Shown: positions 37,228 through 54,191, counted from the stretch's first letter. The stretch: DNA of 64,000 nt from an uncultured bacterium (GCA_963825135.1 CAWGRW010000009.1:2506443-2570442); one strand, 5' to 3'. Notes: a model not told the origin generated them from the letters alone. Numbers and translations are program-made.

Positions 37228-37473
37228 TTCTTCTTTGTCTGGATACAAAGAAGCAAAAATCATCCGACTACAGAATTGTGCTAAAAATCTCATGTACTCG
37301 CTAAATCTTCCGATTCTACCCCATCGGAGCAATAGTTTAGCGATGTCCGTGGCTAACTAACGTCGTGCGGATAGGAGAGGGTGTCCGAATGCGCGCTCGC
37401 TTGCATTCGTTCCCGTGGAAGATTTTTAACGCTCGTACAATCGATTTTCTTAACGCAAATTCTCTAATGTCGG
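37228..37473. repeat. Long imperfect hairpin repeat, copy 1 (carries an 87-nt insert)
   Basis: Near-identical to 41119-41277; arms CCGAC..AGAATT..AAAATC..TGTAC..AAATCTTCC and GGAAGATTT..GTACA..GATTTT..AATTCT..GTCGG. Confidence 0.85.
37325..37411 (-). mobile_element. 87-nt structured insert (AAC...CCG type)
   Basis: Present in the loop of repeat copy 1 and absent from copy 2 at about 41215. Confidence 0.65.
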
Positions 37474-37498
37474 GGAGAGAAAAAGAAATATAAGGTAC

Positions 37499-37536
37499 AC
37501 CCTCACCCTATCCCTCTCCCCTCAAGGGAGAGGGAA
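37499..37536. repeat. Short palindromic repeat (CCCTCTCCC/GGGAGAGGG type)
   Basis: ACCCTCACCCTA-TCCCTCTCCC-CTCAA-GGGAGAGGGA. Confidence 0.7.
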
Positions 37537-37621
37537 TTAAAGAAAGGGTGAACGGTTTGGCTACGTCGCCGGTTTGAGCTTAGGGGGCCGGGAAGGGATC
37601 GTAGAACACACTATGTGTGCG

Positions 37622-38539
37622 TCAGTCGCACTTATAGGGCTTTGAGAGCGTGAAGACCTTGTCGAGGCCGGGGGTGTAGAAATAGCGCTCGTGGTTACGC
37701 GATCTTATAAGCACCTTGTCCGTGCCGCAGGCGAACGTGAGCACCCTCGATTCGGGCTCCTTCATGCCTCCGAGGTCGGGACGTATGGAGGATATCTCGA
37801 CGAAGACCGTGCCGTTCAGGTCTTTCTGCTTGACTATGGTGTCTATCATCTCCTGGGGTATGTGGAGGTGTCCCGAGAGCCATAGATCGACCTTGTATTT
37901 CCTGAGCACCTCTCTGAACCTCTTGGAGTCCGTTATCTGTCTCGCGGCTATGGACGAGAACATTATGCCGCTCCCCTGAAGGGGCGCGTGCGTAGTAACG
38001 ACAATTATCTTGTCCTGGTTGTCGATCACCAGATTTTTCCACCACTCGAAGGTCTCGTCCGTTATGACGGTCGCCTTGCCCGTGTCTTCGTTCGACATGA
38101 AGATGAAGAGGATGTTCCCCTTCTCGACCGTATAGTTGACGTCCCCTCCCCCCCTTAATTTTTTCCTGAATATATTCCCCTTGTCGGTTTTGTAATCGTG
38201 GTTCCCGATTATCTCGTGCCATTCCTTGATGTATGACCCGTCTCTCGTCCTGATGTACAGGTCGTAGCTCTCCGCGGTCGGGAAATTCACGACGTCGCCC
38301 GCGTTGATGGCCATATCGACGTCCGTGACGTTGTCGTTCATGTCCTCGACCGCGTTCCTGAAGGGTTTTATGTGCGCCTCGTCCGTGATATGGGTATCGG
38401 ATAGAGCCCAAACGGTGAGTGTTTCTTCCGGGACGTACCAGTTCTCGGCCGTGAGCTCCTTGCCCGAGGAATAACCGGTCTGGCACGACGTCAGCGTGAG
38501 GAATACGAGGATTAATAAAAGCGGGGCGCGTATTTTCAT
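37622..38539 (-). CDS. Calcineurin-like metallophosphoesterase lipoprotein
   Basis: Start MKIRAPLL with lipobox LTSC; SDTH, AGD, GNHD and SGHLH motifs. Confidence 0.85.
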   Translation of the reverse strand: MKIRAPLLLILVFLTLTSCQTGYSSGKELTAENWYVPEETLTVWALSDTHITDEAHIKPFRNAVEDMNDNVTDVDMAINAGDVVNFPTAESYDLYIRTRDGSYIKEWHEIIGNHDYKTDKGNIFRKKLRGGGDVNYTVEKGNILFIFMSNEDTGKATVITDETFEWWKNLVIDNQDKIIVVTTHAPLQGSGIMFSSIAARQITDSKRFREVLRKYKVDLWLSGHLHIPQEMIDTIVKQKDLNGTVFVEISSIRPDLGGMKEPESRVLTFACGTDKVLIRSRNHERYFYTPGLDKVFTLSKPYKCD

Positions 38540-38559
38540 TCTCGATAGATAATACGGGA

Positions 38560-39858
38560 TCAGGCGATGTCCCGGATCGGGGCGCCGAGCGCTTCTTCGC
38601 CCGAAACCCCTGTGATCGTGACCGTTATTTCGTCGCCCTGCGCGTGCGCTCCGCCCGTAATCCGCACCGGTATGTAGTTGGGCGTTGTACCCTTCCCCCC
38701 GGCCTCGACGAGTATCGGGAGGCTCCGTCCGATAAAGCCCCTGTGGAATTCGGCCTTCTTTCTCGTGCCGAGCTCCCGCAGGAGCGCCGCGCGACGCTTG
38801 ATAGTGTCCGGGTGCACCTGCCCGGGCATGGAGGCGGCGGGGGTGGCCCTCCGCTTCGAATAAGGGAATACGTGGAAGTACGTGAGCGCCGAGTTCCCGG
38901 CCGTCTCGTATGTGTTCCCGAACTCCTCCTCCGTCTCTCCGGGGAAGCCCACCATTATGTCCGAGCCTATGGCCGCGTCGGGAATGCTCTCGCGTATGAG
39001 GCTCGTGAGCTTTACGAACCTCTCCGGGGCGTATCGCCTCCTCATTCTCTTGAGCACGCCGGCGTCTCCGCTCTGAAGGGCGACGTGGAACTGCGGGCAT
39101 ATGGTCTCTGCGCCGGCGATAAAGCCTATGAGATCCTCGTCTATGTCGGCCGGGTCGAGCGATGTGAGGCGCACGCGTTTTACTATCCTCTCCCGCTCGA
39201 TGCTCTTTAAGAGCTCGGGGAAGCTCGTGCCGATGTCCCTGCCGTAGCTCGCGATATGCACCCCCGTGAGCACTATCTCTTTATATCCGGCAAGGGCCAG
39301 CTTCTCCATGCGCTCGAGTATGTCGGCTGCGGGGAGGCTCCTCGACCTTCCCCTGGCGCGCGGTATGATGCAGAACGTGCAGGCGTAATTGCACCCGTCC
39401 TGGACCTTTAAAAACGCGCGCGTCCTTCCTGGGAAGTACTCAATGCCGGGCGTCTCGAAGACCTTTTTCTTCTCGCTGAATATGTCCGAGATGAAGAGCC
39501 TGGGCTCGCTCTGCAGGGTTCCTTCCCTGATTATTTTAAGCAGTTCGGAGAACTTGTGCGAGTTGCCGATGACGTAATCGACGTCCCCGATCTGCCTGAG
39601 CTCTTCGGGCGAGACCTGGGCGTAGCAGCCCGTGACGATGACGACGCCCTCGGGGTTAGCGCGCCTGGCCCTGTGTATGTAGTGGCGGGCCTCGGCGTCC
39701 GCCTTGTGGGTCACCGTGCAGGTGTCTATGACGTACACGTCGGCCTTCTCGGGGAAAGGGACCCGGACGTACCTGCTTTTGGGCAGGCGGTTCAGTATGG
39801 CGGCCGTATCGTACTGGTTTACCTTGCACCCGAGGGTCACGACTGAAACGCTCTTCAT
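38560..39858 (-). CDS. mtaB: tRNA t6A37 methylthiotransferase MtaB
   Basis: TLGCKVNQYD, TCTVT, RAFLKVQDGCNYACTFC and HVFPYSKR. Confidence 0.92.
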   Translation of the reverse strand: MKSVSVVTLGCKVNQYDTAAILNRLPKSRYVRVPFPEKADVYVIDTCTVTHKADAEARHYIHRARRANPEGVVIVTGCYAQVSPEELRQIGDVDYVIGNSHKFSELLKIIREGTLQSEPRLFISDIFSEKKKVFETPGIEYFPGRTRAFLKVQDGCNYACTFCIIPRARGRSRSLPAADILERMEKLALAGYKEIVLTGVHIASYGRDIGTSFPELLKSIERERIVKRVRLTSLDPADIDEDLIGFIAGAETICPQFHVALQSGDAGVLKRMRRRYAPERFVKLTSLIRESIPDAAIGSDIMVGFPGETEEEFGNTYETAGNSALTYFHVFPYSKRRATPAASMPGQVHPDTIKRRAALLRELGTRKKAEFHRGFIGRSLPILVEAGGKGTTPNYIPVRITGGAHAQGDEITVTITGVSGEEALGAPIRDIA

Positions 39859-40946
39859 TGCGGGAGCACCTCTTTTATCCACCCCCCGCCGAGCACCGTG
39901 TCGCCGCTATAGAACACGACCGCCTGGCCGGGCGTGATCGCCCTCTGGGGGCTCCCGAATTCGAGGGTGCCCTCCGTGCGGCTCCACAACTTCAACTCCG
40001 CGTCGCTCTCGGGGTGCCTGTATCTGACCTTGGCCTTAACTTTAACTGTGCTATTTATCATATCGTCAATATTAGTGTTATCGACCCACGTAATGTCCTC
40101 CGCCACGAGCCGCGTCCTGTATAGCTCTCCCTCCCCTCCGACGAATACGCGGTTGGACGAGGGCTCTATGCGGGTCACGTACATGGGCTTTCCGGCGGCT
40201 ATGCCCAGGCCCCGCCTCTGCCCCACGGTGAAGGAGAAGACGCCCCTGTGAGCGCCGAGCACGTCGCCCGCCGAGCTTACTATCTCGCCGTTTGAAGGCG
40301 TGAACGCGGAGCGGGCCTCCAGGTAATCCCTGTAATTCCCGCCGGGTACGAAGCACACCCCGGTGCTGTCGGGCTTCTCCGCCTGTCTTAAGCCGAAGCC
40401 CTTCGCTATCTCCCTGACCTCGTCCTTCGTCATGTCTCCGAGCGGGAACATCAGGCGGCCGAGCTCCTTCTGAGTGAGAGTGTGGAGGAAATAGGTCTGG
40501 TCCTTGGACGCGTCTTCCGCCTTCCTGAGCGCGAGCCGTCCGTGCACGGGGTCCCGCTCTATCCTCGCGTAGTGTCCGGTCGCAAGGTAATCCGCCCCGA
40601 GCTCGAGGGCCTTTTGCAGGAGCAGGTCGAATTTGATGTGCTTGTTGCAGAGCACGCACGGTATCGGGGTCTTCCCCGACATGTACTTGTCCACGTAGTC
40701 GGTCAGGACGTATTTGCTGAACTCCCCGGTGAAATTTACGACGTAGTGGGGAAAGCCGAGCTCCGCGGCCGCCCTCCTCGCGTCAACTACCTGGTCGAGA
40801 GAACAGCACCCCCCTTCGGCGTCCCCGTAATCGAGGAGCTGCATCGTAATGCCTATAACCTCGCATCCTTCCTTCTTCAGCAGGGCCGCCACGGTCGTGC
40901 TGTCTACGCCTCCGCTCATGGCCACTACTACGCGCTTTCCGTTCAT
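39855..40946 (-). CDS. mnmA: tRNA 2-thiouridylase MnmA
   Basis: SGGVDS, PCVLCN, ATGHYA, KDQTYFL and AITPGQ. Confidence 0.96.
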   Translation of the reverse strand: MNGKRVVVAMSGGVDSTTVAALLKKEGCEVIGITMQLLDYGDAEGGCCSLDQVVDARRAAAELGFPHYVVNFTGEFSKYVLTDYVDKYMSGKTPIPCVLCNKHIKFDLLLQKALELGADYLATGHYARIERDPVHGRLALRKAEDASKDQTYFLHTLTQKELGRLMFPLGDMTKDEVREIAKGFGLRQAEKPDSTGVCFVPGGNYRDYLEARSAFTPSNGEIVSSAGDVLGAHRGVFSFTVGQRRGLGIAAGKPMYVTRIEPSSNRVFVGGEGELYRTRLVAEDITWVDNTNIDDMINSTVKVKAKVRYRHPESDAELKLWSRTEGTLEFGSPQRAITPGQAVVFYSGDTVLGGGWIKEVLPQ

Positions 40947-41018
40947 AATCAAGGTAGAAAGATTACACTAGCCGTTAAAATGAGACAAATCGGGGCGGGG
41001 CGGACGATAGGCGGCCAA

Positions 41019-41400
41019 AACCGTTTGTCCTGAGTCTGTCGAAGGATTGAACGGGTTTGGCTGTGCCGCCGGTTTAGCCTGAGGAGTTTGGGAGTGTCGT
41101 AGAGGCACACACAGTGTTTTCTTCTTTTCCTTGATGAAAAGAAGCAAAAATCATCCGACTACAGAATTGTGCTAAAAATCTCATGTACTCGCTAAATCTT
41201 CCAATTCAACCCCACCCCGTGGAAGATTCTTAACGCTCGTACAATCGATTTTCTTAACGCAAATTCCGTAATGTCGGTAGCGTGCTTCGACTAGCTCAGC
41301 ACGAACGGGTTGGGCTACGTTGCCGGTTTGAGCGTGAGAGTTTCGGAAGGATTATAAAACACACATTGTGTGTGCCCGCCGCAAATTTTGTAATGTCGGG
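41019..41400. repeat. Cluster of nested palindromic repeats
   Basis: CTGAG..GTCGAAG-type repeats at 41019-41056 and 41282-41309; CACAC-element right arms at 41050-41117 and 41304-41375; long hairpin copy 2 at 41119-41277 plus a fragment at 41380-41400. Confidence 0.8.
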
Positions 41401-41477
41401 AAAAGAGAAAGGCAAAAGATGGATTTCACGTTTTGGATTGTGCAGATTGTGCGCGGCTAACCCGGTGAAGCGGCGCT

Positions 41478-42713
41478 TTAGACTACGCCTTCTTCGACTC
41501 CGACGATGGAGTAATAGGGTTCGTTCCCGAGCTTGAGCTCCCGGGCGTCCACGTATTCCTTCACGATACCGTAGACGTCTGCCGACACTATGACCCTCCA
41601 GACGGGGGCTATGGTGCTGATTTTTCTGGCCATGTCCGTGATCTGCTTTACGCCGTGCGGCATGCCGGAGTCTTCGTACACGGGGATGGACTTCATGCCT
41701 ATTCCGATCTTCCCGCTTATGGGGGCCTTGCCCTCTATCTTTCTTTCCTTCGTAATGCTCGCAAGGAGCTGGAGCACCTCGACGGCCGAGCATACGGCCT
41801 TTAGTTCGGGATTCACCTGCTCGTCAGGGGCGTTGAAAAACGCCACGATCTCGTCCTTCAGGAGCGCCTCGATCACCCCTCCGTAGTTGGATATTATCGC
41901 CGACGCGGCTTTCCGGTAATCGGCCAGGAACGAGTTGAACTCGGACGGCTTGAGCGTGTTGGAAAGCTCCTGGAAGTCGGCTATCTTGGCGACGATGACG
42001 GTCACGTTACGGGGCCTGGACGTTGTCTCTTCCTCCTCCTCGTCCTCGTCGGAGGCAATGAGAGTCGGCTGGAACGGGGGTATCTCCTCCTCCATGTCCT
42101 CCCTCTTCCTCATTCTATCGACCATCTGGTTAAACGTCTCGTAGGCCCTGATTGTGGAAACGTCGTCGGAAGCTTCCGGGTCGAGCCTTGCGCCCGTGAG
42201 GTCCCCGCGGGAGACGCTCTTCATGGCGGATATCAGCTTTTCTATCGCGTCGTTACGGCCCGAGGAGAAGAGCGACAGTATGAATATGACTATCACGGAG
42301 ACCGCGACGCCTATGAGGACGCTCCACATGAGGGAGGAAAGGACGAGGCTCTTGAAGTCCCTCCCGGTGACCCCGAGCACAATCGTGTTGTTCTCGGGCG
42401 TGGTAATTGGGACGATCTCGAGATTCTCCGTGTCATCCCCTCCGAAGCTCTCGAGCATAACGCCGTCCGGGTTGAGGAGCTTTATATAAACTATGTCGTG
42501 TCTGGAGTTCAGTATCTCTTTAGAAGTGTCTGCGAAGGTCTTGCCCGGGGCGTTGAAGAGCTGGGCCAGCTCCTGGCCCCTTTGTTCCGTAATCGTGGTC
42601 GTGAAATAGTAGGAGTTAAATAGAGAGACGAGGACGGAGACGAGGATGAATATCAGGGCGAGAACAAGACTGTTTCCCGAATATATGTTCCCTAACCTGG
42701 ACTTGAATCCCAT
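41478..42713 (-). CDS. Two-TM HAMP protein with degenerate class III nucleotidyl cyclase domain
   Basis: TM-periplasmic-TM layout, HAMP (VSRGDL...FNQMVDRM), cyclase-like elements YGGVIE..DEIVAFFNAP and KIGIG. Confidence 0.7.
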   Translation of the reverse strand: MGFKSRLGNIYSGNSLVLALIFILVSVLVSLFNSYYFTTTITEQRGQELAQLFNAPGKTFADTSKEILNSRHDIVYIKLLNPDGVMLESFGGDDTENLEIVPITTPENNTIVLGVTGRDFKSLVLSSLMWSVLIGVAVSVIVIFILSLFSSGRNDAIEKLISAMKSVSRGDLTGARLDPEASDDVSTIRAYETFNQMVDRMRKREDMEEEIPPFQPTLIASDEDEEEEETTSRPRNVTVIVAKIADFQELSNTLKPSEFNSFLADYRKAASAIISNYGGVIEALLKDEIVAFFNAPDEQVNPELKAVCSAVEVLQLLASITKERKIEGKAPISGKIGIGMKSIPVYEDSGMPHGVKQITDMARKISTIAPVWRVIVSADVYGIVKEYVDARELKLGNEPYYSIVGVEEGVV

Positions 42714-43020
42714 GTATCTCGTTTCTCCGGCAGTTCGAACGCGCCGCGGTCAACAGCCGCCCGCGTTCATTTAAAGTGAAGACTTCGCATAGAAAAAGCT
42801 ACCTTATAATACTGAGTAAAATTTAACTAGTAAAGATTAATTTTAACAGAGTGTTAACAAAATCGCGGGCTCGTTCGGGGCCGCCCTGCGGAATGAATAA
42901 TTATCCGTGTTGATTGCTTATGGCTGAATGGCCGCCGTCCGGGCCGTCGTTTCCCGCCGGGAGCCGGGGGAGCCGCTCCGGGCTCCCGGCACGGCTGAAA
43001 TTCCGGATATTGGTCCCGGC

Positions 43021-43287
43021 CTAAGCCTGTGCCTGAACCGGCTGGATATTGATCTTTGTCTTGTTTTTCCTGAACGGCTGAAACTCCACCACGCCGTCCT
43101 TAAGCGCGAAGAGCGTGTGGTCGCGTCCCATGCCCACGTTGAGTCCCGGGTGGAACGTCGTGCCCCTCTGCCTCGCGAGGATGTTGCCGGCCTTTACGAC
43201 CTCCCCGCCGAATTTCTTGACCCCGAGCCTGCGGCCCCTGGAGTCCCTGCCGTTTCTGGTGCTGCCGCCGCCTTTTTTTGTTGCCAC
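43021..43287 (-). CDS. rpmA: 50S ribosomal protein L27
   Basis: [13 protein letters not shown] and RQRGT. Confidence 0.97.
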
Positions 43288-43306
43288 TTTGGGTTACCTC
43301 CCTGCC

Positions 43307-43618
43307 TTACTTTGAAATTTCCGTTATCTCGACCGAAGTGAACTTCTGGCGGTGCCCTGTCTTCTTCCTGAAGTCTTTCCTTCTCCTGAACTTGAAGATG
43401 ATGAGCTTCTCGCCCTTCTTCGTGCCGATTATCTTCGCCTTGACTACGGCGCTGTCTAAGACAGGCGAGCCTATGGCGGTCCCGCCCTCGTCCGCGACAA
43501 GCAGTACGTCCTTGAATTCGACGTCGTCGCCCGGGTTCCCCTTGAGGAGCTCCACGTCGATTACGTCGCCTTTGTTTACGATGTACTGTTTTCCGCCGGT
43601 TTTAATTACCGCCTGCAT
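43307..43618 (-). CDS. rplU: 50S ribosomal protein L21
   Basis: [12 protein letters not shown] and GHRQ. Confidence 0.97.
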
Positions 43619-44022
43619 GATGTACTCCTCCCGCTTCTGTGAAAGGGTAAAATTATTCATATTTATGGCGTGTTGTCAAATATTTGAATATTAGGGAAGC
43701 GGAATTCCAATGAGCCTGACCTTCTTCAGGCGCGCGTGTTTTTTTACGCGCATTTTTTTACTGTGTATTCATTCATTGTGTATTACTTATATGTGTATTC
43801 CTTAGGGGGCAAAAATTGACCCCCGGGGGGTCATTATTTGAGGGGTGGGGCTTCATATTTTGAAGGGGTGGGTGACAATTCCTTCACCCTCCCTCTTACC
43901 GCATTTAGACAATGGGACCAATGGGACATACGAGCGGGGAATATACCCTGATGATGTGTCCCGTCTGTCCCGCGACTGCCGGAGCGATTCTCCGGCTTTT
44001 CCGGCATACGCTATCGCATGAA

Positions 44023-45156
44023 TCAGAGGCCGAACCAGCGGGCGCGCCTGCTCGAACCGAAATGCTCCTTTGCGGTCCGCATGGCGACTGAAGGCTCGTG
44101 GTATATACCCGTGGGCGAAGGCCCCGAGAAGAAATCCACGTCTACCCGGCCGATCTTCCCGGCGCCGAACTCGATGTAGCAGGAACCCGCGCCGGTGTAA
44201 GCCCCTGACTGCCCGCCCCCGCGTATGCGCGCGATAAGCGAATCCGCGACGGCGCGGGCCGCGGCCTCGGCAAACACGCCCGCCTTGGGCGTTCCGGTAT
44301 TCGCGATGTCCCCGATTGCGTAGACCCCGTCGAATCGTGTCTCGAGCGTCCGCGGATTGACGGGCACCCAGCCGTTCTCGGCCATGCCGCTTTCCTCGAC
44401 AACCTTCGGCGCACAGTGCCTGGGCACGCCCAGGTATAAGTCGTAGGGCAGCTCGCTGCCGTCGTCCAGCACCGCCACGCGGCGGCCGGGGTCGAGCGAA
44501 GCCACGCGGCGGCCGGGGACAAACTTGATGCCGCGCTCAGAAAAGGCGGCGACGAGCGCCCTGGAAGTGTCGGGCGACGGCGGCACCGGGCTCCCAAACG
44601 GCAGCACCAGCGTAATTTCGCATCGGCCGCGGACGCCCTTTGTCCTCAGGTAGTCGTGCAGCAGAAGCGCGCATTCGCTCGGCGCCGGCGGGCACTTGTA
44701 CGGCGCCGCGGAAACGCCGATGACGGCCGGGCCCTTTGAGAAATTTTGAAGCATCCCGCGCAGCCGCTCCGCCCCGGCCGCGGAATAAAACTCGCAGCCC
44801 TCCTCGGCAAGCCCCGGCGTGGCGTCGAGGTCGTAGTCGGCGCCCAGCGCGACTACCAGGACATCTGACTCGAAGCCGCCGGCATCGGTAGTGACGCGCC
44901 GCGCTTCCGGATCAATCGCGGTAATCGTCTCCCGCACAAAGCGCACTCCCGTTTTTACAAAGTTACGGTACGGCAGACGGACCGCGTCAAACACCGTTCG
45001 GCCGAACATTACGTCGAGCTTCGAGTAGCCGAAAATAAAGTGGTCGTTCTTGTCGATGAGGGTCACATCGACCTCATCGCTGAGCGCCTCCGACAACAGG
45101 GTGCTGAGCTCGAGGCCTCCGAAACCCGCTCCGAGAACCAGGACGCGCGTCTTCAT
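44023..45156 (-). CDS. FAD-dependent oxidoreductase, SQR/FCSD-like
   Basis: GAGFGG, PYKCPPAP, VYAIGD, PKAGVFA and CYIEFG. Confidence 0.8.
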   Translation of the reverse strand: MKTRVLVLGAGFGGLELSTLLSEALSDEVDVTLIDKNDHFIFGYSKLDVMFGRTVFDAVRLPYRNFVKTGVRFVRETITAIDPEARRVTTDAGGFESDVLVVALGADYDLDATPGLAEEGCEFYSAAGAERLRGMLQNFSKGPAVIGVSAAPYKCPPAPSECALLLHDYLRTKGVRGRCEITLVLPFGSPVPPSPDTSRALVAAFSERGIKFVPGRRVASLDPGRRVAVLDDGSELPYDLYLGVPRHCAPKVVEESGMAENGWVPVNPRTLETRFDGVYAIGDIANTGTPKAGVFAEAAARAVADSLIARIRGGGQSGAYTGAGSCYIEFGAGKIGRVDVDFFSGPSPTGIYHEPSVAMRTAKEHFGSSRRARWFGL

Positions 45157-45237
45157 GGAGATATCCTCCCAAAAAAAGAATTGTCGATGCTCTCGCGGCG
45201 GGCAGCGCATTGCGATCGCAATGACATCTATTATTCT

Positions 45238-45380
45238 GTCATCGCGAGAACTGCTCTGATGAATAAGAAGAGCAGGTCGCCATTGGCTGAATACTGTGCT
45301 CTTATATGCTAAGGCACATAGAATATTAATCCAAAACGGAGCGACTGTGGCGATCTCGCTTTATTCATGAGATTACCGCG
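45238..45380. repeat. GTCAT.GCGAG...GCGATCTC-type palindromic repeat interrupted by an 85-nt insert
   Basis: GTCATCGCGAG at 45238 and CGGAGCGACTGTGGCGATCTC at 45337, followed by a partner arm GAGATTACCGCG. Confidence 0.6.
45249..45333 (+). mobile_element. 85-nt structured insert (AAC...CCA type)
   Basis: AA-CTGCTCT-N11-AGAGCAG-GTC ... TGTGC/GCACA hairpin ... TATTAATCCA. Boundaries inferred from the repeat consensus, with no empty site in the window. Confidence 0.5.
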
Positions 45381-45392
45381 GTATAAGAATTC

Positions 45393-46415: not shown

Positions 46416-46481
46416 TAATATACCCGCTATAAGTAAACTTTTTTCCTTAATGGAAAAAACAAAGATACCACACGTAATACG

Positions 46482-46916
46482 GCACACAATGTTTGTTTTA
46501 TGAAAAGGCAAAGGAAGGAAATATTATTTCTTCTTTTCCTCCTCAAATTGCAGGAGCGGCTTCCAGCCGCGATCCGTTATTTTGAAAGGACTGGATTCCC
46601 GATAAAGGAATTCGGGAATGACAAATCATTTCCCCCCTTAGGAAAAGGGGAACAGTTCCGAACGTGTGAGGAATTGGTCGGAGTTGATTAAAAGCAAAGA
46701 AGTCCCATAATCGAAGTGACATGGTATTTGAAACCAGATTCAGGGGGATTTAGTCTTTGATGATGACTGTTGAGGGATTAACGAAAAGGCAAACGGAAAA
46801 TCCTCCCTAACCCTCCTTTTCCTAAGGAGGGAATTAACTATGCAAGGCGAACTTGCTGCAGTTGCTGGATTGAGCTGAAGAGTCTGGACAGAATCATAAA
46901 ACACACGTTGTGTGTG
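46482..46916. mobile_element. Second composite element bounded by inverted CACAC-N3-GTGTG-like termini, with nested repeats
   Basis: Left arm 46482-46536 resembles 37176-37236; right arm 46850-46916. Contains a REP-like palindrome (46550-46572), a GGATTCCCG..CGGGAATGAC palindrome (46591-46622) and CCCCCTT/AAGGGGG palindromes. Confidence 0.55.
46651..46736 (+). mobile_element. 86-nt structured insert (AAC...CCA type), copy A
   Basis: Splits AAGGGG|GATT of a CCCCCTT-N5-AAGGGGG repeat; homologous to 54036-54122. Confidence 0.7.
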
Positions 46917-48791
46917 TCAGCCCTCGAGCACGAGGTTGAACACGGAGGAGTCTACGTGCACCTTGTCGCGGAGCTTCTCGTTCACCGCTATGTATATCCT
47001 GTCCCCGTATCTCGACAGGCGGTTGATGAGCGTGTGCAGGTGATGGCGCTCGGCCTCGTGTATCTCCTCGATATTGAGCGTGACCGAGGAGGACGAGCTC
47101 TGGAGCACGTTTTCTATGTGCGTGCCCATGCGCTCGAAGAATTCCCCGCCGAGCACCCCTTTCATGGATATGGAGAGGTTGTGCGCCGCGTTCCTTACCC
47201 TATCGAGGGATACTTCGAGCACGCCCTTTTTGAGATAGCGCTCGAAGGTTTCCTCGAACGCCGCGAGGTGGTTCCTGGCGAGGCTGCCCTCTTCTTCCGT
47301 TACCCTTATGAAATGACGGTCGATGTAATTCCTCATCGAGATGCCTATGATCCAGTCCTGCACGACGAGCGGAACCATGCCCGGGTTCGTGAACGGGAAC
47401 GTCCTTAAGACATGATACGCCCTCGAAAACCCGCCCGGTATTATGCCGTTCACGATGAAGTTCTTAAGCGAGCGTATCTGGTCCCCGATGCCGTACGTGC
47501 TCCTGAAAATGGGGTTCTTCATGTATTTCATTTTATTCCCTATCCTCTCGGCTATGGTCGCGTCGTCAAGGAGCCTGTAGTAGAGCTCCCGGTAGCCGCT
47601 CACCATCTCGTCGTAGGACATCTGTTTCGGTATGAGGTTCGTGCCGAGCTTGGTGTTGTCGGTCCCGCTCGCTTCCTTGAGCAGGCGGCCGTCTTTCTCC
47701 AGACGCTCGTAAAGAGGCGTCTTGGGCACGGCCGTGAGGAGGCCTATCATCGCCGCCTGAATGCCGGAGCTCTGTATGAAATTGTACTGGAGGTCGAACG
47801 TGCGGACGGTATCGTTATCGAACCCGATTATGAAGCCCGCGAGCACCTCTATGCCGTATGAATAAACGTGCCTTATGGAGCTGAGTATGTCGCCCCTCGT
47901 GTTCTGGAACTTGAGCGTTTCCTTCAAGCTCCCCTCGTCCGGGGACTCTATGCCTATGAACACCCAGCCGAAGTTCGCCTTCGTGAAGAGCTCCAGAAGC
48001 TCGTCGTCTTGCGCGATGTTGAGAGACGCCTCGGTCCCGAAGAGGAATTTGTAGTCGTGCTCCTTCTGATAATCCGTCAGGTAAGCCATGAGCTTCTTGG
48101 CGACGGGCTTGTTTCCGATCAGGTTGTCGTCGACGAAGAATACGTTCGTGACGTTTAATTTCCTAAGCTCGTCGAGCTCCCTCCCCACCTGCTCGAACGC
48201 CTTGACCCTGGGCTTCCGCCCGAACATTACTATTATGTCGCAGAACTCGCACCGGTACGGGCACCCCCTGGAGAACTGGAGGCTCACCGCCTGGTACTTG
48301 TCGAGCTTGAGCAGGTCGAACCGGGGCGTCGGGGAGTCCTCGAGCGAGACCTCTTCGCATTCCTTATAGAGCTTCGCCGGGGAGCCGCTGTCAAAATCGG
48401 CGCAGAACCTCTTCCATATGTATTCGGCTTCGCCCGCGACCACGGTGTCGGCTATCGTCTGATAGTACTCCGGGCACAGGGAGGCGTAACTCCCGCCGGC
48501 GACGACGTAGTACCCCCTGTTCCTGTAAAACCTGAGAAGCTCCTTCTGTCTCAGGAACTGCACCCCCATCCCGCAGACGCCTATGACGTCGGCCACGGGG
48601 TTGAGCGGTATGGTCTCGATGTTTTCGTCTATTATTTCGATTTCCCACTCGGACGGGCTCAGGGCCGCGAGCGTCGCCAGCCCCAGGGGCGGGTTTATGG
48701 TCCTTATGTCCCGGGGCATGATGTTGTCGACCGCCCATTTGAAGCTCCAGAAGCTCTCCGGGAATCTCGGGTTAATGAGTAAAAGTTTCAT
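46917..48791 (-). CDS. B12-binding radical SAM protein (DUF4070-type) with C-terminal extension
   Basis: PPLGLATLA, VAGG, RGCPYRCEFC, FVDDN, IGIES and PKTPLY. Confidence 0.88.
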   Translation of the reverse strand: MKLLLINPRFPESFWSFKWAVDNIMPRDIRTINPPLGLATLAALSPSEWEIEIIDENIETIPLNPVADVIGVCGMGVQFLRQKELLRFYRNRGYYVVAGGSYASLCPEYYQTIADTVVAGEAEYIWKRFCADFDSGSPAKLYKECEEVSLEDSPTPRFDLLKLDKYQAVSLQFSRGCPYRCEFCDIIVMFGRKPRVKAFEQVGRELDELRKLNVTNVFFVDDNLIGNKPVAKKLMAYLTDYQKEHDYKFLFGTEASLNIAQDDELLELFTKANFGWVFIGIESPDEGSLKETLKFQNTRGDILSSIRHVYSYGIEVLAGFIIGFDNDTVRTFDLQYNFIQSSGIQAAMIGLLTAVPKTPLYERLEKDGRLLKEASGTDNTKLGTNLIPKQMSYDEMVSGYRELYYRLLDDATIAERIGNKMKYMKNPIFRSTYGIGDQIRSLKNFIVNGIIPGGFSRAYHVLRTFPFTNPGMVPLVVQDWIIGISMRNYIDRHFIRVTEEEGSLARNHLAAFEETFERYLKKGVLEVSLDRVRNAAHNLSISMKGVLGGEFFERMGTHIENVLQSSSSSVTLNIEEIHEAERHHLHTLINRLSRYGDRIYIAVNEKLRDKVHVDSSVFNLVLEG

Positions 48792-49018
48792 CGCGCCTCC
48801 GCTCTGGCCTCGATCATCATCGCGTGATATGGATTAATGGTGATGGGTCCTTTCTGTCTCCATTGTAGATTATATTCCAAGGTTAATCAATAGATTTTAA
48901 CGGCAGGAGTGGCATCGTCTTTCACGAGTTGCGTTCTCGCCCGATTTATAAGATTGCCGCGGTTACTGGTTTAGGCAAGGTAGTTCCGGTAGAATCGTAA
49001 GAACACACATTGCGTGCG

Positions 49019-49510
49019 TCACCCGCCAGGCATCCTGAGAGCCTGCGGGGACACTATGATCCCCGTGCCGTCGGCGTAGACGTACTCTCCGGGCAGGAAT
49101 GTTACCCCCGCGAAGGTCACGGCGACGCCCGTCTCTCCAGCTCCGTTCCTCTCGGTCTTGAGCGGTATCGAAGCGAGCGCCCTGATGCCGAGGTCGAGGC
49201 CCTTTAGAGCGTCCGCGTCCCTCACGGCGCCGTAAATGACGAGCCCCTCCCAACCGTTCTTCATTGCCGACTCGGCAATGAGGTCCCCCATAAGGGCCTT
49301 TCTCACCGAGCCTCCTCCGTCGACGACCATAACCTTGCCGCGCCCGGGCCTGCCGGCAATTTCCTTCACGAACGAATTGTCCTCGAAGCACCTGACGGTG
49401 ACGACCTCGCCCCCGAACGAGCGCCTGCCGCCGAAATCCCTGAATACGGGCTCGGCGATACGGACGAGCGCGGGATAGAGGTCACAGAGGTCCGGGGTCG
49501 AGTATTCCAT
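49019..49510 (-). CDS. rraA: RraA family protein (RNase E inhibitor / HMG aldolase-like)
   Basis: [22 protein letters not shown] and YADGTGI. Confidence 0.92.
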
Positions 49511-49558
49511 GCGGGTTTATCCTGATACCGGGAATTTATACAGCCGGGGTGAGAAATT

Positions 49559-50071
49559 TCAAGCCTGTCCCCAAAGCTTCTTCGGGTATTGGAAGTCGAG
49601 GAGCTTGCCTTTGCTCTTCCCGACGTCCTTCCATTTTTCTGCCCTGAATTCGAGGAGCACGACGCCGCATGTGGGGACGTTGTCTATCCCCGCGTCCGAG
49701 AGCTCGTTCACTGCGGCGGTGACGGCGGGGTTGTGGCCGACGATCATCACGGTGCCGTACTTGTCGTCGAGCCCCTTTATCACGTCAATAAGGCCGCCCC
49801 CATCGAACGTGTAGAGCCCCTCGTCGACGAGCACGTCCGATTTCTGAAACCCGAGCTCTTTAGCAATCTTCTCGGCCGTCTTGAGAGCGCGCACTGCCGG
49901 GCTCGACGTGACGAGATCAGGCCTCAGCTTGTAATCAGCCAGGTGCTTGCCCATTTTAGGCGCTTCTTCCTTGCCCCTCCGGTTAAGTGGCCTCTGCCTG
50001 TCGTCGAGCCCGGCGTCGTCCCAGCTCGATTTTGCGTGGCGGACGATGAAGAGTGTTTTTGATTTCGGCAT
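49559..50071 (-). CDS. sixA: Histidine phosphatase, SixA family
   Basis: RHAKS, RPLN.RG, SSPAVRA and VGHNP. Confidence 0.87.
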   Translation of the reverse strand: MPKSKTLFIVRHAKSSWDDAGLDDRQRPLNRRGKEEAPKMGKHLADYKLRPDLVTSSPAVRALKTAEKIAKELGFQKSDVLVDEGLYTFDGGGLIDVIKGLDDKYGTVMIVGHNPAVTAAVNELSDAGIDNVPTCGVVLLEFRAEKWKDVGKSKGKLLDFQYPKKLWGQA

Positions 50072-50182
50072 CGCGGATCTCCTCTCTCTAAAGGCTAACA
50101 TCCGCGAGAGGTATGGCAAGGCGATTAGCAGTCCGGTCATTCCCGGGTTGGATTATAACCGGGAGACCGGCGCGGTACTCTA

Positions 50183-50211
50183 TTGTTAATTCCCCCGATT
50201 TATTGTAAAAT
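50183..50211 (+). promoter_or_regulatory. Putative promoter of IPTL-CTERM gene 1
   Basis: TTGTTA-N17-TAAAAT, conserved at 50953-50981. Confidence 0.55.
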
Positions 50212-50246
50212 TGACAAATTGTACAAATTTACAGGAGGATAAATAT

Positions 50247-50780
50247 ATGAATATATACACCCATAAAGCATTACCGTTTTACGTTTTCGCGCTGTCCGTA
50301 TTGGGACTTTTGCTCATTCCGTCTTTTAGTAACACCGCCCACGCGCAGTGCGCGGTTATAATCTGCAAGAGCGCGCCTGAATTACCGGTAGTCGATTTCA
50401 AGGTCGCTGAGCTTGTCTTTCCTTTCACCGTGTCGCAGGGCGGTGACTCCGATACGTTCGAGCTGGTTCCAAACAGCGAATGCTTCGTCTCAGCTTTCAG
50501 CGGTGATAACTACGAAGTCGTCGAAGAACCCCTCCCCGGTTGGGTGCTGGACAACGTCGAGTGCAGCGATTCGACGCTTGTCGACGTGACGTTCATCAGA
50601 AACGGGATCAGCCTCGACTGTCTCGGAGGAACGGAGATAACGTGCACGTTCACGAACGTAACTGGACACGTGTCGAACATTCCGACACTTTCCGAATGGG
50701 GGATGATCGCAGCTGCGGCCGGACTCGCGCTCGTCGGCGTGTTCTTCGCTGTGAGGCGCAGGAAGGCAGGTGTGGTTTAA
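50247..50780 (+). CDS. IPTL-CTERM sorting domain protein 1
   Basis: Signal peptide, Cys-containing beta-rich domain ending CTFTN, then IPTLSEWG-TM-RRRK tail. Confidence 0.88.
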   Translation: MNIYTHKALPFYVFALSVLGLLLIPSFSNTAHAQCAVIICKSAPELPVVDFKVAELVFPFTVSQGGDSDTFELVPNSECFVSAFSGDNYEVVEEPLPGWVLDNVECSDSTLVDVTFIRNGISLDCLGGTEITCTFTNVTGHVSNIPTLSEWGMIAAAAGLALVGVFFAVRRRKAGVV

Positions 50781-50804
50781 GAAGGGATCAACAGAGTAAA
50801 AGAT

Positions 50805-50831
50805 GAGACCCTGAAACGAGTTCAGGGTGAC
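50805..50831. repeat. CCTGAA-N5-TTCAGG palindrome downstream of IPTL gene 1
   Basis: GAGACCCTGAAACGAGTTCAGGGTGAC; related copy at 51568-51593. Confidence 0.7.
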
Positions 50832-50842
50832 GAAAGAGTTGG

Positions 50843-50881
50843 AAGCCTCTTCCTCCCGAGCGGGGGAAGGGGCTTTTTTTT
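50843..50881 (+). terminator. Intrinsic terminator
   Basis: AAGCCTCTTCCTCC..GGGGGAAGGGGCTT hairpin followed by a T run. Confidence 0.85.
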
Positions 50882-50952
50882 GGAAACGGTTCCGTAATGA
50901 CTTGAAATGTCAAAGTGTGCCGCTGTCCCGGCCGGAAATGACGGACGTTCTA

Positions 50953-50981
50953 TTGTTAATCCCCCCGGTTTATTGTAAAAT
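50953..50981 (+). promoter_or_regulatory. Putative promoter of IPTL-CTERM gene 2
   Basis: TTGTTA-N17-TAAAAT. Confidence 0.55.
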
Positions 50982-51013
50982 GGACATATTTAAGCAACTT
51001 AAAGGAGGAATAT

Positions 51014-51550
51014 ATGAATTCGAACATGCGCGGGGGATTGCCCTTTTACCTTTTTGCACTGTCTTTATTGGGACTTTTGCTGATTCCGTCGTTCTATGAC
51101 ACCGCACTGGCACAGCCGGACTGCGGCATAACAATCTGTAAAAGCGCGCCCCAGCTGCCGGTGCCTCAATCCGAAGAAGAGTCGGTCTTCTTCCCGTTCT
51201 CCGAAATACGCGGACAGTCCGTTAACGACTTTTCCGTGGCAGCCAACGGAAGTTGTACAGGGGGCGGCCTCGGTACCGGTGAGAGCGACGAGATTATCGA
51301 GGATCCCTTCGAAGGGTGGGAACTCGTAGATATCAATTGCGAGGGAGACCCGGGCATAGTTGTTACGCTCATCGAGAACGGCGTGAGCGCCCGTTGTGAG
51401 TCTCAAGGATTCACCACCTGCACATTCACGAACAGGAGACTTCCGGCGGTACCGACTCTCTCCGAATGGGGGATGATCGCGGCTGCGGGCGGACTCGCGC
51501 TCGTCGGCGTGTTCTTCGCGGTGAGGCGCAGGAGAGCGCAATCGGCGTAA
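51014..51550 (+). CDS. IPTL-CTERM sorting domain protein 2
   Basis: Paralogue of 50247-50780; VPTLSEWG-TM-RRRR tail. Confidence 0.88.
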   Translation: MNSNMRGGLPFYLFALSLLGLLLIPSFYDTALAQPDCGITICKSAPQLPVPQSEEESVFFPFSEIRGQSVNDFSVAANGSCTGGGLGTGESDEIIEDPFEGWELVDINCEGDPGIVVTLIENGVSARCESQGFTTCTFTNRRLPAVPTLSEWGMIAAAGGLALVGVFFAVRRRRAQSA

Positions 51551-51605
51551 TTGGTGAATTAAAAGATGAGATCCTGAAATAAATTCAGAATGATTGAAAA
51601 TTTGG

Positions 51606-51640
51606 AGCCTCTTCCTCCGAGCGGGGGAAGAGGCTTTTTT
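51606..51640 (+). terminator. Intrinsic terminator
   Basis: Near-identical to 50843-50881. Confidence 0.85.
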
Positions 51641-51641
51641 G

Positions 51642-52130
51642 TTACGACCAGGGCTCCCTGTAGTAGTAAACGAAGTTGGCGACCGACGGCCTCTCCGTCC
51701 AGCCGAGCTTCTTGTAGAAACCGGTCTTGTACGAGAGCTTCTCCCTGCCGTTCGTGAGCATGAGCCTCATGCAGCCCCTCCTATTACCCTCCTCCATGAC
51801 GCGCTCGACGAGGGCCTTCCCGACCCCCATGCCGCCCGAGGCGGGGCTTACGAACACGTCCGAGACGTACCCCTCGAGGCTCCCGAGCATTATGAACGGG
51901 ACCCAGTGGACGTTCAGAAAGCCTATGACGCTGTCATTCTCATCGGCGGCGACTATTATAGAATGCCCCTCCCTGTCCCTCTCGCAGTGCTCGATGAGTT
52001 TTTCGATCGGCCCCGCGACCTCGTCCGGAGGAAGGGCGTTTCTCTTCTCCGACCACCCGATCTCCCTCAGTATCTCCGCCATGCGGACCGCGTCTTTAGT
52101 TCTTGCTTCACGGATTTTTACGTCTGGCAT
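51642..52130 (-). CDS. GNAT family N-acetyltransferase
   Basis: VFVSPASGGMGVGKALV acetyl-CoA motif and FYKKLGW. Confidence 0.85.
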   Translation of the reverse strand: MPDVKIREARTKDAVRMAEILREIGWSEKRNALPPDEVAGPIEKLIEHCERDREGHSIIVAADENDSVIGFLNVHWVPFIMLGSLEGYVSDVFVSPASGGMGVGKALVERVMEEGNRRGCMRLMLTNGREKLSYKTGFYKKLGWTERPSVANFVYYYREPWS

Positions 52131-52270
52131 TTGCGTCTCCGGTCCCGGGTATTTTTGATTTATATTAACATTAAAAATATGGAAGGGCGGGGATCGTGTG
52201 GTATTCTTGAATCATCCGCTCTGCCGGACCATCTAATCAATTACCGAATAGCATCCAGGAGGTATTACAT

Positions 52271-52885
52271 ATGAGAATCGCAAAAGGCATTTCGGCGCTG
52301 CTTGTCGCCGTAATCATGCTCACGCTCGCGGGCGTTAGGGAAACGCGCGCCGAGGCCGTGACATACGTGATCGACCCCGATCACTCGCAGGTCATATTCA
52401 AGGTCAAGCACATGGGGATAAGCACGGTCACAGGCAGGTTCGACCTGATGGAAGGCTCGTACACGTTCGACGACAAGGACATTAGTAAATCGAGCGTAGA
52501 GACGACTATCACCACGGCGAGCATCAATACGAACAAGCAGAAGAGGGACGACCACCTGAAATCCCCCGACTTCCTCGACGTCTCGAAGTACCCCGCTATC
52601 ACGTTCAAGAGCAAGGAAGTGAAGAAAGGTAACGGGGACGAATTCACTATAATCGGAGACCTCACTATAAACGGCGTTACGAAGCAGGTGGAGCTTGCGG
52701 CGGAGTACGGCGGCAAGGCCAAGGACCCGATGGGGAACGAGCGCACCGCGTTCACGGCGAAGACGAAAATAGACAGGAAGGACTACGGGATTACCTGGAA
52801 CAAGACGCTCGACTCCGGAGGACTCGTAGTCGGGGACGACGTGAACATCGAGCTTGATGTCGAGGGGATCAGGAAGAAGGGGTAG
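52271..52885 (+). CDS. YceI family lipid/polyisoprenoid-binding protein
   Basis: Signal peptide; IDPDHS, RDDHLKSPDF, GDLTING and IDRKDYG. Confidence 0.93.
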   Translation: MRIAKGISALLVAVIMLTLAGVRETRAEAVTYVIDPDHSQVIFKVKHMGISTVTGRFDLMEGSYTFDDKDISKSSVETTITTASINTNKQKRDDHLKSPDFLDVSKYPAITFKSKEVKKGNGDEFTIIGDLTINGVTKQVELAAEYGGKAKDPMGNERTAFTAKTKIDRKDYGITWNKTLDSGGLVVGDDVNIELDVEGIRKKG

Positions 52886-52921
52886 TAATAAATTTTAACT
52901 CCTAAGAATTTTAGACATCTG

Positions 52922-53266
52922 TAGGAGCGGGTTCCCGGGTCAAGTCCGGGACGGGCCAGCAGCGATTGATTTCGGAATCTGCCGCAGGAAGCCTGGAAAG
53001 CTAAATCCCCCTAAATCCCCTTTTTCCAAAGGGGGAAAATGTTTTAGTTCCCTCCTTAGAAAAAGGAGGGTTAGGGAGGATTTAAAAAATCACGCATACA
53101 ATGAACGGGTGGTGAGTCACCGTGGACGTGCGGGCGTATAGCTCGTTCAATCCTTCGACCCTCCGACAAGCTCAGGACAGGCGAGCTCAGGATAAACGGG
53201 CTGGCTTCTTTCGTTGGCGAAAGCAGAGGAGGATCGGAGAAATCGCGGAACACAATATGTGTGTGC
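52922..53266. repeat. Cluster of nested palindromic repeats between convergent genes
   Basis: GTAG-REP-like repeat with internal CCCGGGTCAAGTCCGGG (52922-52965); pair of CCCCCTT/AAGGGGG repeats (53002-53083); nested TTCGAC..GCTCAGG (53142-53200); CACAC-element arm (53194-53266). Confidence 0.8.
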
Positions 53267-53930
53267 CTACTCGACCTTTATTTCCTCGTCCGTCCGGTCC
53301 TTGATTTCGGTTTCGGTTATGACGGCCGAGCCGGTCTCGCAGATTCCTTCGGGCTCAGGCGCGTTCCGTTTGACCTCGACCGCGGTTTCCTTAACCGAAA
53401 TCTTTTCGAGGGCGAGCGAGGATTCGAGCTTCACGAGGTCTTCCGTGATGCATGTCCCGGCCCCTTCCCCGATCTTCCATTCGGTGCACTTCTCGCCGCC
53501 TACTGTCTTCTCCCCTACCCGCTTCGCGCCCATGTTGGTCATGAACTCCTCGGTGAACTCCCTGGGGTCCTTGCCCTTGATGCGTTTGTAGATTTCGGGG
53601 AACATCGGGTTCCTGACCTTCGTCCCCGTGTTGTCGTCCAGGTTGATTTTGACGATCCACTGCTCCCCGCCCGCGATGCTGGTTATCACCTTCTCGTTAA
53701 TCTTTAGCGGGGGGCCGCCCGGAACCCTGACCTCGGAAACCTCGACCCAGCAGAGCTTCTTTCCCCAATCGCCCGAATATTCGGTCTTCTCGCCCGCGCT
53801 ATTCCCCTCTATCCTGTATTTGACGGTGTAGCTCTCGAGCGGGTGGTACTTCTGCTCCTGGGCGTGGGAACCAGGAGCAGCCGAAAGGAGAAAAATTAAG
53901 GTAGAGATGTGGAAAATATATTTAATGTCA
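53267..53930 (-). CDS. Secreted hypothetical protein (start uncertain)
   Basis: Host-like codon usage over about 200 codons; hydrophobic signal-like LIFLLSAAPGSHA; no clean in-frame ATG near the signal. Confidence 0.6.
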
Positions 53931-54020
53931 TAGTTTAGAAATACATGACAACTATCTGTGTTTACTGTTAAATGAGGTAATAGATGTGATCTTCTTGTTG
54001 CTCTCATTCCATTCTTTGTT

Positions 54021-54191
54021 AAATCCCCCTTAATCTGGTTTCAAATACCCTGTCGCTTCGATCAAGGGATTTCTTTGCTTTTAATCATCTCCGACCAATT
54101 CCTCCGATTTGTCGGAATTGTTCCCCTTTTCCAAAGGGGGAAAGTAATTTTTGATTCCCTCCTTAGAAAAAGGAGGGGCAGGGAGGATTTT
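54021..54191. repeat. Pair of CCCCCTT/AAGGGGG palindromic repeats, the first interrupted by an insert
   Basis: Same layout as 53002-53083 except for the insert. Confidence 0.8.
54036..54122 (-). mobile_element. 87-nt structured insert (AAC...CCA type), copy B
   Basis: Reverse complement aligns end to end with 46651-46736. Confidence 0.7.

Follow-up and report, generated by a model that had tools for sequence, protein, structure and literature searches.

Short elements with a conserved 5' hairpin interrupt palindromic repeats in an uncultured bacterium, its relatives and tailed phages

Four inserts and their host repeats

The stretch of DNA analyzed here, a 64,000-nucleotide window from the genome of an uncultured bacterium (GCA_963825135.1, CAWGRW010000009.1:2506443-2570442), contains ordinary housekeeping and accessory genes and, between them, four short intergenic inserts, referred to below as elements A to D. 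These inserts belong to a lineage-wide superfamily of elements which is common to bacteria and phages and far larger than the four examples in the window. The window is part of a 2.79-Mb contig from a genome of 3.13 Mb (17 contigs, 94% complete), and its closest named records are metagenome-assembled genomes (MAGs) labeled Thermodesulfobacteriota or 'uncultured delta proteobacterium' (MnmA identity 85-64%). A cyanobacterial origin, hinted at by one GCGATCGC near element B, was rejected because of these closest records.

All four inserts listed in a preliminary description of the window have been recovered in its sequence (Table 1), and uninterrupted copies of the host repeats in the same genome confirm that each of them interrupts a palindromic repeat. 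Comparison of filled and empty sites also upheld, for all four, the absence of terminal inverted repeats and of a target duplication. One boundary had to be moved: element B, described as an 85-nt insert ending at 45333, most likely ends at 45336, to judge from a comparison with the repeat class of its host, which resumes with CGGAGC, and from a contig of a related strain that breaks at 45337.

Table 1. Elements, host repeats and related features (window positions unless a genome contig is given)
Feature	Position	Strand	Remarks
Host repeat A, right arm	37250..37324	-	
Element A	37325..37411	-	86-87 nt, the 1-nt ambiguity being a shared A; head AAC-CGAATGC/GCATTCG-GAC; tail end CTCCG(A); covariance-model match
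Host repeat A, left arm	37412..37486	-	split by element A
Host repeat A, empty copy	41141..41277	-	centre ..CACGGG-GT-GGGGTT.. at 41214/41215
Host hairpin of B, left part	45235..45248	+	TCTGTCATCGCGAG; member of the GTCATTGCGAG..GCAATCTC repeat class
Element B	45249..45336	+	88 nt; head loop GATGAATAAGA; tail end TCCAAAA
Host hairpin of B, right part	45337..45359	+	CGGAGCGACTGTGGCGATCTCGC
Host repeat C with element C	46630..46750	+	TTCCCCCCTTAGGAAAAGGGG^ .. ^GATTCAGGGGGATT
Element C	46651..46736	+	86 nt; end CCA
Host repeat C, empty copy	53004..53037	-	34 nt, uninterrupted
Host repeat C with element D	54022..54142	-	
Element D	54036..54122	-	87 nt; family of C, head loop differs
tRNA arrays (outside the window)	C9:368200-369450; C9:331000-331400; C9:86250-86560; C9:2203000-2203560		up to ~10 units

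Element A has ten near-identical copies in the genome, each located at the centre of a ~150-nt palindromic repeat (host repeat A). Among the 84 left/right arm pairs of this repeat, 66 are uninterrupted (..CGGG-xT-GGGG..), 10 contain element A (+86/87 nt) and two contain a relative with the same kind of head and another tail, the last six rows being other or degenerate inserts or shorter variants. The empty site proposed near 41215 for the insert at 37325 was indeed found, at the centre of an uninterrupted copy. On a tree of the arms, which rests on few columns, the filled copies are scattered: 11 filled rows need 11 changes, and well-supported branches force at least seven of them. Furthermore, five sets of identical host-A arms include both the filled and the empty state. 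On C10, one of the two large contigs of the assembly, copies of host repeat A lie on one strand only.

Elements C and D both split a 34-nt hairpin, host repeat C (TTCCCCC..AAAAGGGG^GATT.AGGGGGATT), of which the genome contains 29 copies: 18 empty (33-34 nt), 10 filled with 86 nt or nearly so and one with another insert. The empty site anticipated at 53002-53037 for both elements was located at 53004-53037, and an identical copy of element D is present at C9:387639-387725.

Element B, also a covariance-model match, is a single copy in this genome, with relatives elsewhere in other species of the same genus, and its host is a GTCATCGCGAG..GGCGATCTCGC hairpin. The spacer which holds it varies among these species: one has only 38 nt and no repeat, and others carry different elements, set in other hairpins and in the opposite orientation. 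A related-strain contig from a sediment metagenome has 22 other letters in place of 155 nt of the window (45181-45337) and resumes exactly at 45337; the replaced 155 nt comprise part of the spacer, the left arm of the host hairpin and element B. This joint (45181/45337) was the one informative joint, alongside many repeat-driven chimeras, in a comparison of the window with four public sequencing runs. Among the public runs listed, none of RNA contained the locus, and the best DNA match, in the form of contigs, shared 0.26 of its sequence words.

Head, tail and junctions of the elements

The preliminary description had seen three unrelated sequences among the four inserts. They share, however, a recognizable 5' head, and both a profile of the first 50 nt (129 copies in the genome) and a covariance model assign them to one superfamily. 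The head, which is the sole part common to the families, comprises AAC, a 7-bp stem whose sequence is free but complementary, a 10-11-nt loop (purine-rich, mostly GA..GA) and GGWCG. A structural scan for AC, then seven stem pairs (no more than one of them G.T), a 9-12-nt loop and G[AT]C gave 121 matches, compared with 7, 14 and 10 in three shuffled genomes, which bears out the proposed 5' hairpin followed by G(T/A)C. The covariance-model search that had been suggested for these inserts was performed with a model of the head (44 positions, 7 pairs; E <= 0.01) and returned 135 genome matches, exactly four of them in the window; since the copies are related, such counts are not counts of independent events.

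Head statistics are based on the 100 of 107 distinct copies which have at least six of the seven pairs at the expected place. The AAC start is found in 85 of them and GTCG or GACG after the stem in 80, while the loop is 10 nt long in 67 and 11 nt in 30, and both begins and ends with GA in 49. The preceding base, thought to be always G, only tends to be so (G 59, C 28, A 9, T 4). Double, compensatory changes occur at six of the seven stem pairs, and 99.4% of the cells pair, as opposed to 10-48% in slid controls, a test which is partly circular because the seed heads came from a scan requiring pairing. As an independent control, a sequence-only pattern which does not demand pairing was used: 48 of its 120 distinct matches are paired at all six free positions, versus 1 of 52 in a shuffled genome. 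Among the stem positions which are not Watson-Crick pairs, G.T (17) exceeds A.C (6), which suggests that the hairpin folds, or matters, on this strand only; as the copies are related, this ratio is weak evidence.

Behind the head, conservation between families ceases. For 35 distinct elements an empty site defines both ends; these elements measure 84-97 nt, and their tails are unrelated between families. It had been proposed that the inserts are conserved by shape and length; length is indeed held within this range, and shape is conserved in the 5' head alone, where sequence is kept as well. Elements have an exact 5' edge and a loose 3' edge, with CCAAA near the end of 15 of the 35 elements and 62% A+T in the last 12 nt, compared with 51% overall. 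Neither of the other features first attributed to the tail is general: the terminal motif TATT-N3-5-CCR is present in only two of these 35 elements, as is a CCA end, and a second helix closed by GGWC was obtained for 54 of 98 copies, fewer than the mean of 61.9 in shuffled sequences. In the family of C and D, none of the 18 pairs predicted for the second domain has undergone compensatory change, the changes being one-sided and passing only through G-U pairs. No inverted ends were found in the four inserts or in the 35 distinct elements, the ends compared being AAC.. and ..CCA or ..CCAAAWTA.

Heads and tails have been shuffled. When 94 distinct copies were clustered by head and by tail, 28 head clusters and 55 tail clusters were obtained; six tail clusters are each linked to two or more head clusters, as are 13 head clusters to two or more tail clusters. 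Among these combinations, near-identical tails are found behind heads with different, internally complementary stems.

Insertion of the elements is well supported. An alignment of filled and empty sites, also recommended in the preliminary description, yielded homologous empty sites with adjacent flanks for 53 of 123 copies, and places the left junction at the base before AAC. When the small variant contigs were compared with the main ones, candidate syntenic pairs of filled and empty sites were also found, and were set aside as paralogues or unclear because their flanks are 85-95% alike or repeat-rich.

Targets and distribution

Nearly all of the 36 distinct target sites inspected lie in recognizable palindromic or hairpin modules of several unrelated kinds. 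Elements are also nested in one another, after base 8 of the head loop, with four nucleotides lost (e0, e7, e97, e113) or none (e79), and others occupy the 3' ends of genes encoding IPTL-CTERM proteins (e103, e105, e113). No fixed target word was seen among the left flanks of the 100 heads and the 36 distinct sites, and pairing or homology of heads or tails with their own flanks, as expected of a guide, was in no excess over mismatched element-flank pairs. The proposal of a minimal non-autonomous mobile element which lands in palindromic repeats is supported, and extended to many unrelated hosts, phage contigs and gene 3' ends. In paralogous IPTL-CTERM genes, elements were noted in the last codons or 3' ends at C9:13706-13790, C13:20289, C9:662601 and C9:665278, some as nested doubles; such insertions would alter the C-terminal anchor. 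Palindromic modules of 76-86 nt without a head were also seen to be present or absent between near-identical contigs (C13:13844-13929, C13:3720-3802, C10:128882-128957), and because of this variation the hosts may themselves be mobile units of similar size.

A further kind of target may be provided by tRNA genes. Tandem head-bearing units adjoin the 3' ends of tRNA-Arg(CCT), tRNA-Glu(TTC), tRNA-Arg(ACG) and tRNA-Arg(TCT), six of 48 tRNA rows having such arrays (one locus accounts for two of these rows, and a variant contig for another). In every case the units run antisense to the tRNA, and every unit closes with a copy, 10-15 nt long, of that tRNA's 3' end. At C9:2203000-2205400, two copies of a tRNA-Arg 3' fragment and a nested element flank a 1.8-kb segment which adjoins tRNA-Arg(TCT) and a broken integrase gene; these flanking copies resemble the attachment repeats that a small island would have.

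Beyond this genome, the head model (E <= 1e-7) matches 28 of 120 genomes of the phylum, this one included, in a survey which compared presence and not counts per genome. The matches among the other 119 genomes are confined to two families, with 26 of 32 genomes in the family of the window and the single genome of a second one, and none of 86 in seven other families. The exact head pattern was also found at seven loci (L126-L132) on five IMG/VR contigs, which derive from related tailed phages encoding large terminase, portal, major head, tape-measure and tail-tube proteins. Over 82 kb, these loci contain 38 matches to the head model, 30 of them full-length, and the phage copies are complete elements set in the same kinds of host hairpins as in the bacterium. 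At each locus the heads lie on one strand, antisense to the annotated packaging, head and tail genes, on contigs which are partial and carry mostly structural genes. BLAST against plasmid and phage records gave no match, and no part of the window reached the gathering score of an Rfam family, matches at loose E-values being at chance level; in these collections, the early impression that the inserts belong to no named family was borne out.

Candidate modes of movement and genomic setting

The data show that the elements insert, filled sites having empty counterparts, that their 5' edge is exact and their head covaries, that the tails are unrelated and have been shuffled, that the targets are hairpins, and that copies occur in chromosomes as well as in phages. 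Tentatively, we favor the view that the elements are a superfamily of 84-97-nt non-autonomous mobile DNA which is moved in trans, by way of the head hairpin in single-stranded form. The head, folded as single strand on the strand written here, would be the recognition site of a trans-acting factor, either encoded elsewhere or supplied by the host. This factor would cut exactly before AAC and copy or move the strand up to the loosely defined A-rich tail. The piece would then be joined into DNA able to extrude hairpins, such as palindromic repeats, the loops of other heads and the T-arm/acceptor end of tRNA genes, leaving no duplication and sometimes removing a few target bases. This view is based on the conservation of one end only, the covariation of the hairpin that lies 2 nt from this end and the asymmetry between G.T and A.C, as well as on the hairpin targets (own heads included), the strict strand bias in phages and the shuffled tails. 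From these features we infer a single-stranded DNA intermediate, one-ended processing and a dedicated enzyme, and the closest logic would be, by analogy, that of HUH-type single-strand transposition or of rolling-circle 'one-ended' transfer.

Several observations weigh against this view. Right junctions have lost 0-10 target bases, which are present in the empty site and replaced in the filled one, and HUH transposases are not known to cause such losses. Only one recognizable hairpin is present per element, compared with two at the ends of IS200/IS605 elements, and small target losses, a single hairpin and no fixed target word would together be unlike any known enzyme family. In the chromosome, no consistent strand bias relative to genes was found (32 sense and 27 antisense between co-directional genes), nor any relative to GC skew. 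The partial circularity of the stem test and the relatedness of the copies count here as well. Finally, the genome contains no match to Y1_Tnp, RVT_1, IS110 DEDD, TnpB, resolvase, Transposase_31 or DDE_Tnp_1, and a search for Y2_Tnp (PF04986) was blank, its control having given no signal in any genome. Within the family, Y1_Tnp occurs in five of 33 genomes; some of these have no heads, and it is missing from most of the head-rich ones.

The HUH and IS110 enzymes to which the preliminary description had pointed as precedents were therefore not found, both Y1_Tnp (PF01797) and the IS110 DEDD domain (PF01548) being absent from the genome. This absence is not proof, because MAGs often lose repeated insertion-sequence copies. 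RVT_1, the reverse transcriptase (RT) domain, occurs in two of five head-rich relatives, and the fact that neither Y1 nor RT is correlated with the elements argues against drivers of the RAYT and RT types. A Pfam scan of the ~160 open reading frames (ORFs) of the 224-kb contig and of the ORFs beside isolated copies revealed no HUH or RT domain, and returned accessory and housekeeping genes, integrases and one rve fragment. Phage_integrase has eight matches in the genome, including a broken one that lies beside the tRNA-Arg(TCT) array. Only a few ORF families have multiple copies in the genome, and none is transposase-like. Long, autonomous versions were sought by way of the host's other arm, within 8 kb downstream of the head; even at the normal distance, only four of 129 heads had this arm.

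A bolder proposition is that of a new transposition system, common to one Thermodesulfobacteriota family and tailed phages, in which a factor recognizes the hairpin of the head within single-stranded nucleic acid and inserts the element into other hairpins. This factor would be a new class of enzyme or a co-opted host enzyme, and not a Y1 HUH, RT, IS110, TnpB, serine recombinase or DDE_Tnp_1 protein. In this extended form, the proposition is possible and must be called doubtful.

Movement might also require no dedicated enzyme. Template switching, illegitimate recombination and gene conversion among hairpin repeats could have produced the pattern, the head being then an ordinary local hairpin. 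Heads do resemble host hairpins (GTCATTGC-GAGCGAAGCGAA-GCAATC has the same type of loop), and the shuffling of heads and tails, the few target bases lost at the right junction, the 76-86-nt palindromic modules which are likewise present or absent between near-identical contigs, and the lack of a transposase in the genome would all be expected. Such processes do not readily explain why 85 of 100 heads have a 5' junction placed exactly at AAC, in unrelated and non-homologous targets, why length is held to 84-97 nt, or why the longest words common to an element and its own flanks are no longer than those shared with the flanks of other elements, and we consider this explanation unlikely. Retroposition of a ~90-nt, tRNA-sized structured RNA, in some cases CCA-ended, would make the 5' edge the end of the RNA and the A-rich tail the start of copying. 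It would account for an exact 5' end next to a variable 3' end and for small target deletions, and it is consistent with the preference for G.T over A.C (17 to 6), the variation of the second domain of family C/D through G-U pairs only and the arrays adjoining tRNA genes. However, RVT_1 is absent from this genome and present in only two of five element-rich relatives, CCA ends are limited to two of 35 distinct elements, Rfam has no match and the second domain shows no compensatory change in 18 pairs. Moreover, the phage elements are antisense to genes, so that gene transcripts would not carry the sense RNA. Overall, retroposition appears quite unlikely.

Two other explanations have less in their favor. 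Placement by a tyrosine recombinase (integrase- or Xer-like) which recognizes hairpin or tRNA-end sites would fit the array units, whose last 10-15 nt repeat the tRNA 3' end in the manner of integrase attachment sites, and the eight Phage_integrase matches, including the broken one beside tRNA-Arg(TCT), point in the same direction. Outside the tRNA arrays, however, the target sequence is not repeated at the two junctions, the targets are unrelated in sequence and no core is common to element ends and targets, which makes such integrative modules improbable. That the elements are not mobile at all, and form a family of cis-acting sequences or small-RNA genes whose empty sites are deletions, would agree with a head which is conserved across genera and a stem which covaries. 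Yet empty copies are more numerous than filled ones and have an intact hairpin, which the insert disrupts, orthologous spacers in related species have different elements or none, orientation to neighboring genes is not fixed, and some copies lie inside gene 3' ends or are nested in other copies; of all explanations, this one is the most improbable.

Among described elements, the closest are repetitive extragenic palindromes (REPs) and REPINs, mobilized by the Y1 enzyme RAYT/TnpA-REP, and these share several traits with the elements reported here. They are short, non-autonomous hairpin repeats with a conserved unpaired tag, they lack duplications and the inverted ends of transposable elements of the miniature inverted-repeat type (MITEs), and they persist vertically in a lineage in tens to hundreds of copies. 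Some REPs are found inserted within palindromes (PMC3733652; see also PMC3116915, PMC8266576). The present elements differ in having a 7-bp stem with a 10-11-nt loop instead of tight 20-40-nt palindromes, and a single head with a ~55-nt unrelated tail instead of a doublet. A GTAG tag is lacking, as is a RAYT/Y1 gene in this genome, and the distribution of Y1 in the family does not track the elements. Nearest among them are the CGTC-tagged REPs, which are reported to have no dedicated transposase, to be often CCA-ended and to lie inside palindromes in some species (Di Nocera et al., 2013, PMC3733652). Read on the opposite strand, the head is GG-CG(A/T)C-C followed by the hairpin and GTT, so that a palindrome is preceded on its 5' side by a CGTC-like tag. 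The CGTC families described have 8-9-bp stems starting with AT, 4-5-nt loops and lengths of 20-40 nt (PMC3733652). In contrast, the stem here has 7 bp, the loop 10-11 nt and the unit ~90 nt, and about half of the heads carry CGAC instead of CGTC; because stem, loop and unit length differ, the elements are not members of these families.

Strand-specific behavior and insertion into single-stranded DNA, as proposed above, are known from the mechanism of IS608. Miniatures derived from IS200/IS605 (PATEs) also lack inverted ends and duplications and have a subterminal hairpin (PMC6006769). IS200/IS605 members differ in that they carry two related hairpins at their ends and that insertion takes place 3' of a fixed word of four or five nucleotides; the present elements have one hairpin, no fixed word and small target losses, and the genome has neither TnpA nor TnpB. 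Similarly, rolling-circle elements lack inverted ends and duplications, and their loose end captures or shuffles sequence, as in the present elements. IS91/ISCR and Helitrons combine one sharp and one loose end with a hairpin near the terminus (for Helraiser, see PMC4778049). They differ in that the elements measure 90 nt and have no fixed AT or GTTC/CTTG target, the search for Rep/Y2 being blank with a silent control.

Other systems offer looser parallels. The cyanobacterial SDR4-6 repeats, reportedly described by Elhai and co-workers in 2008, are said to be tiny repeats of 21-27 nt lying inside other repeats or hairpins; by that account they differ from the present elements, which measure 84-97 nt, have a defined head and reside in a host that is not a cyanobacterium. 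ERIC repeats with internal inserts are another case of tiny repeats inside other repeats and hairpins. MITEs differ by their terminal inverted repeats and target-site duplication, in place of which 0-10 target bases are replaced here, and IS110/IS1111 elements by a DEDD transposase (PF01548) and a core dinucleotide common to both junctions, neither of which was found. Integron cassettes do not fit either, as the empty sites lack the AA/TT that an attC crossover (RYYYAAC..GTTRRRY) would leave, nor do retroelements (group II intron, retron, SINE-like), with no RVT_1 in this genome and RVT_1 in two of five element-rich relatives. Literature searches, which left supplementary files aside, returned work on REP/REPIN/RAYT, Helitrons and organellar hairpin elements, and none that describes such a head or such elements.

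Small hairpin repeats without a transposase, such as CGTC REPs, cyanobacterial SDRs and organelle hairpin elements, are a long-standing loose end of bacterial genomics. The present lineage is an unusually clean case, as it combines a defined 5' edge, a covarying recognition hairpin, many filled and empty pairs within single genomes, nesting, tRNA arrays and phage copies. Because its genomes appear to lack known single-strand transposases and RTs, what moves the elements is directly testable, and a new mover could reveal a new hairpin-specific DNA- or RNA-joining activity. In this uncultured group, the elements reshape intergenic regions, gene 3' ends and phage genomes.

Regarding the genomic setting, several of the small contigs vary from stretches of the two large ones, C9 and C10, to which they are 91-99% identical, so that copy counts for the genome are somewhat inflated; C1-C8 and C11-C17 look mostly like strain variants or recent duplicates within the bin. 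Heads and host repeats cluster in accessory regions (C10, of 224 kb; C9:1-90 kb; C9:2.45-2.76 Mb), the spacers of which are nearly all mosaics of many short palindromic modules. The cumulative GC skew of C9 has its minimum at ~1.26 Mb and its maximum at ~2.24 Mb, giving very unequal arms on the contig, and the repeat-rich regions of C9 fall within the longer arm. At C9:1215546-1217767, the domains of a leucyl-tRNA synthetase are divided between two ORFs separated by a gap of ~200 nt, and a head-bearing element lies just upstream, at C9:1215195.

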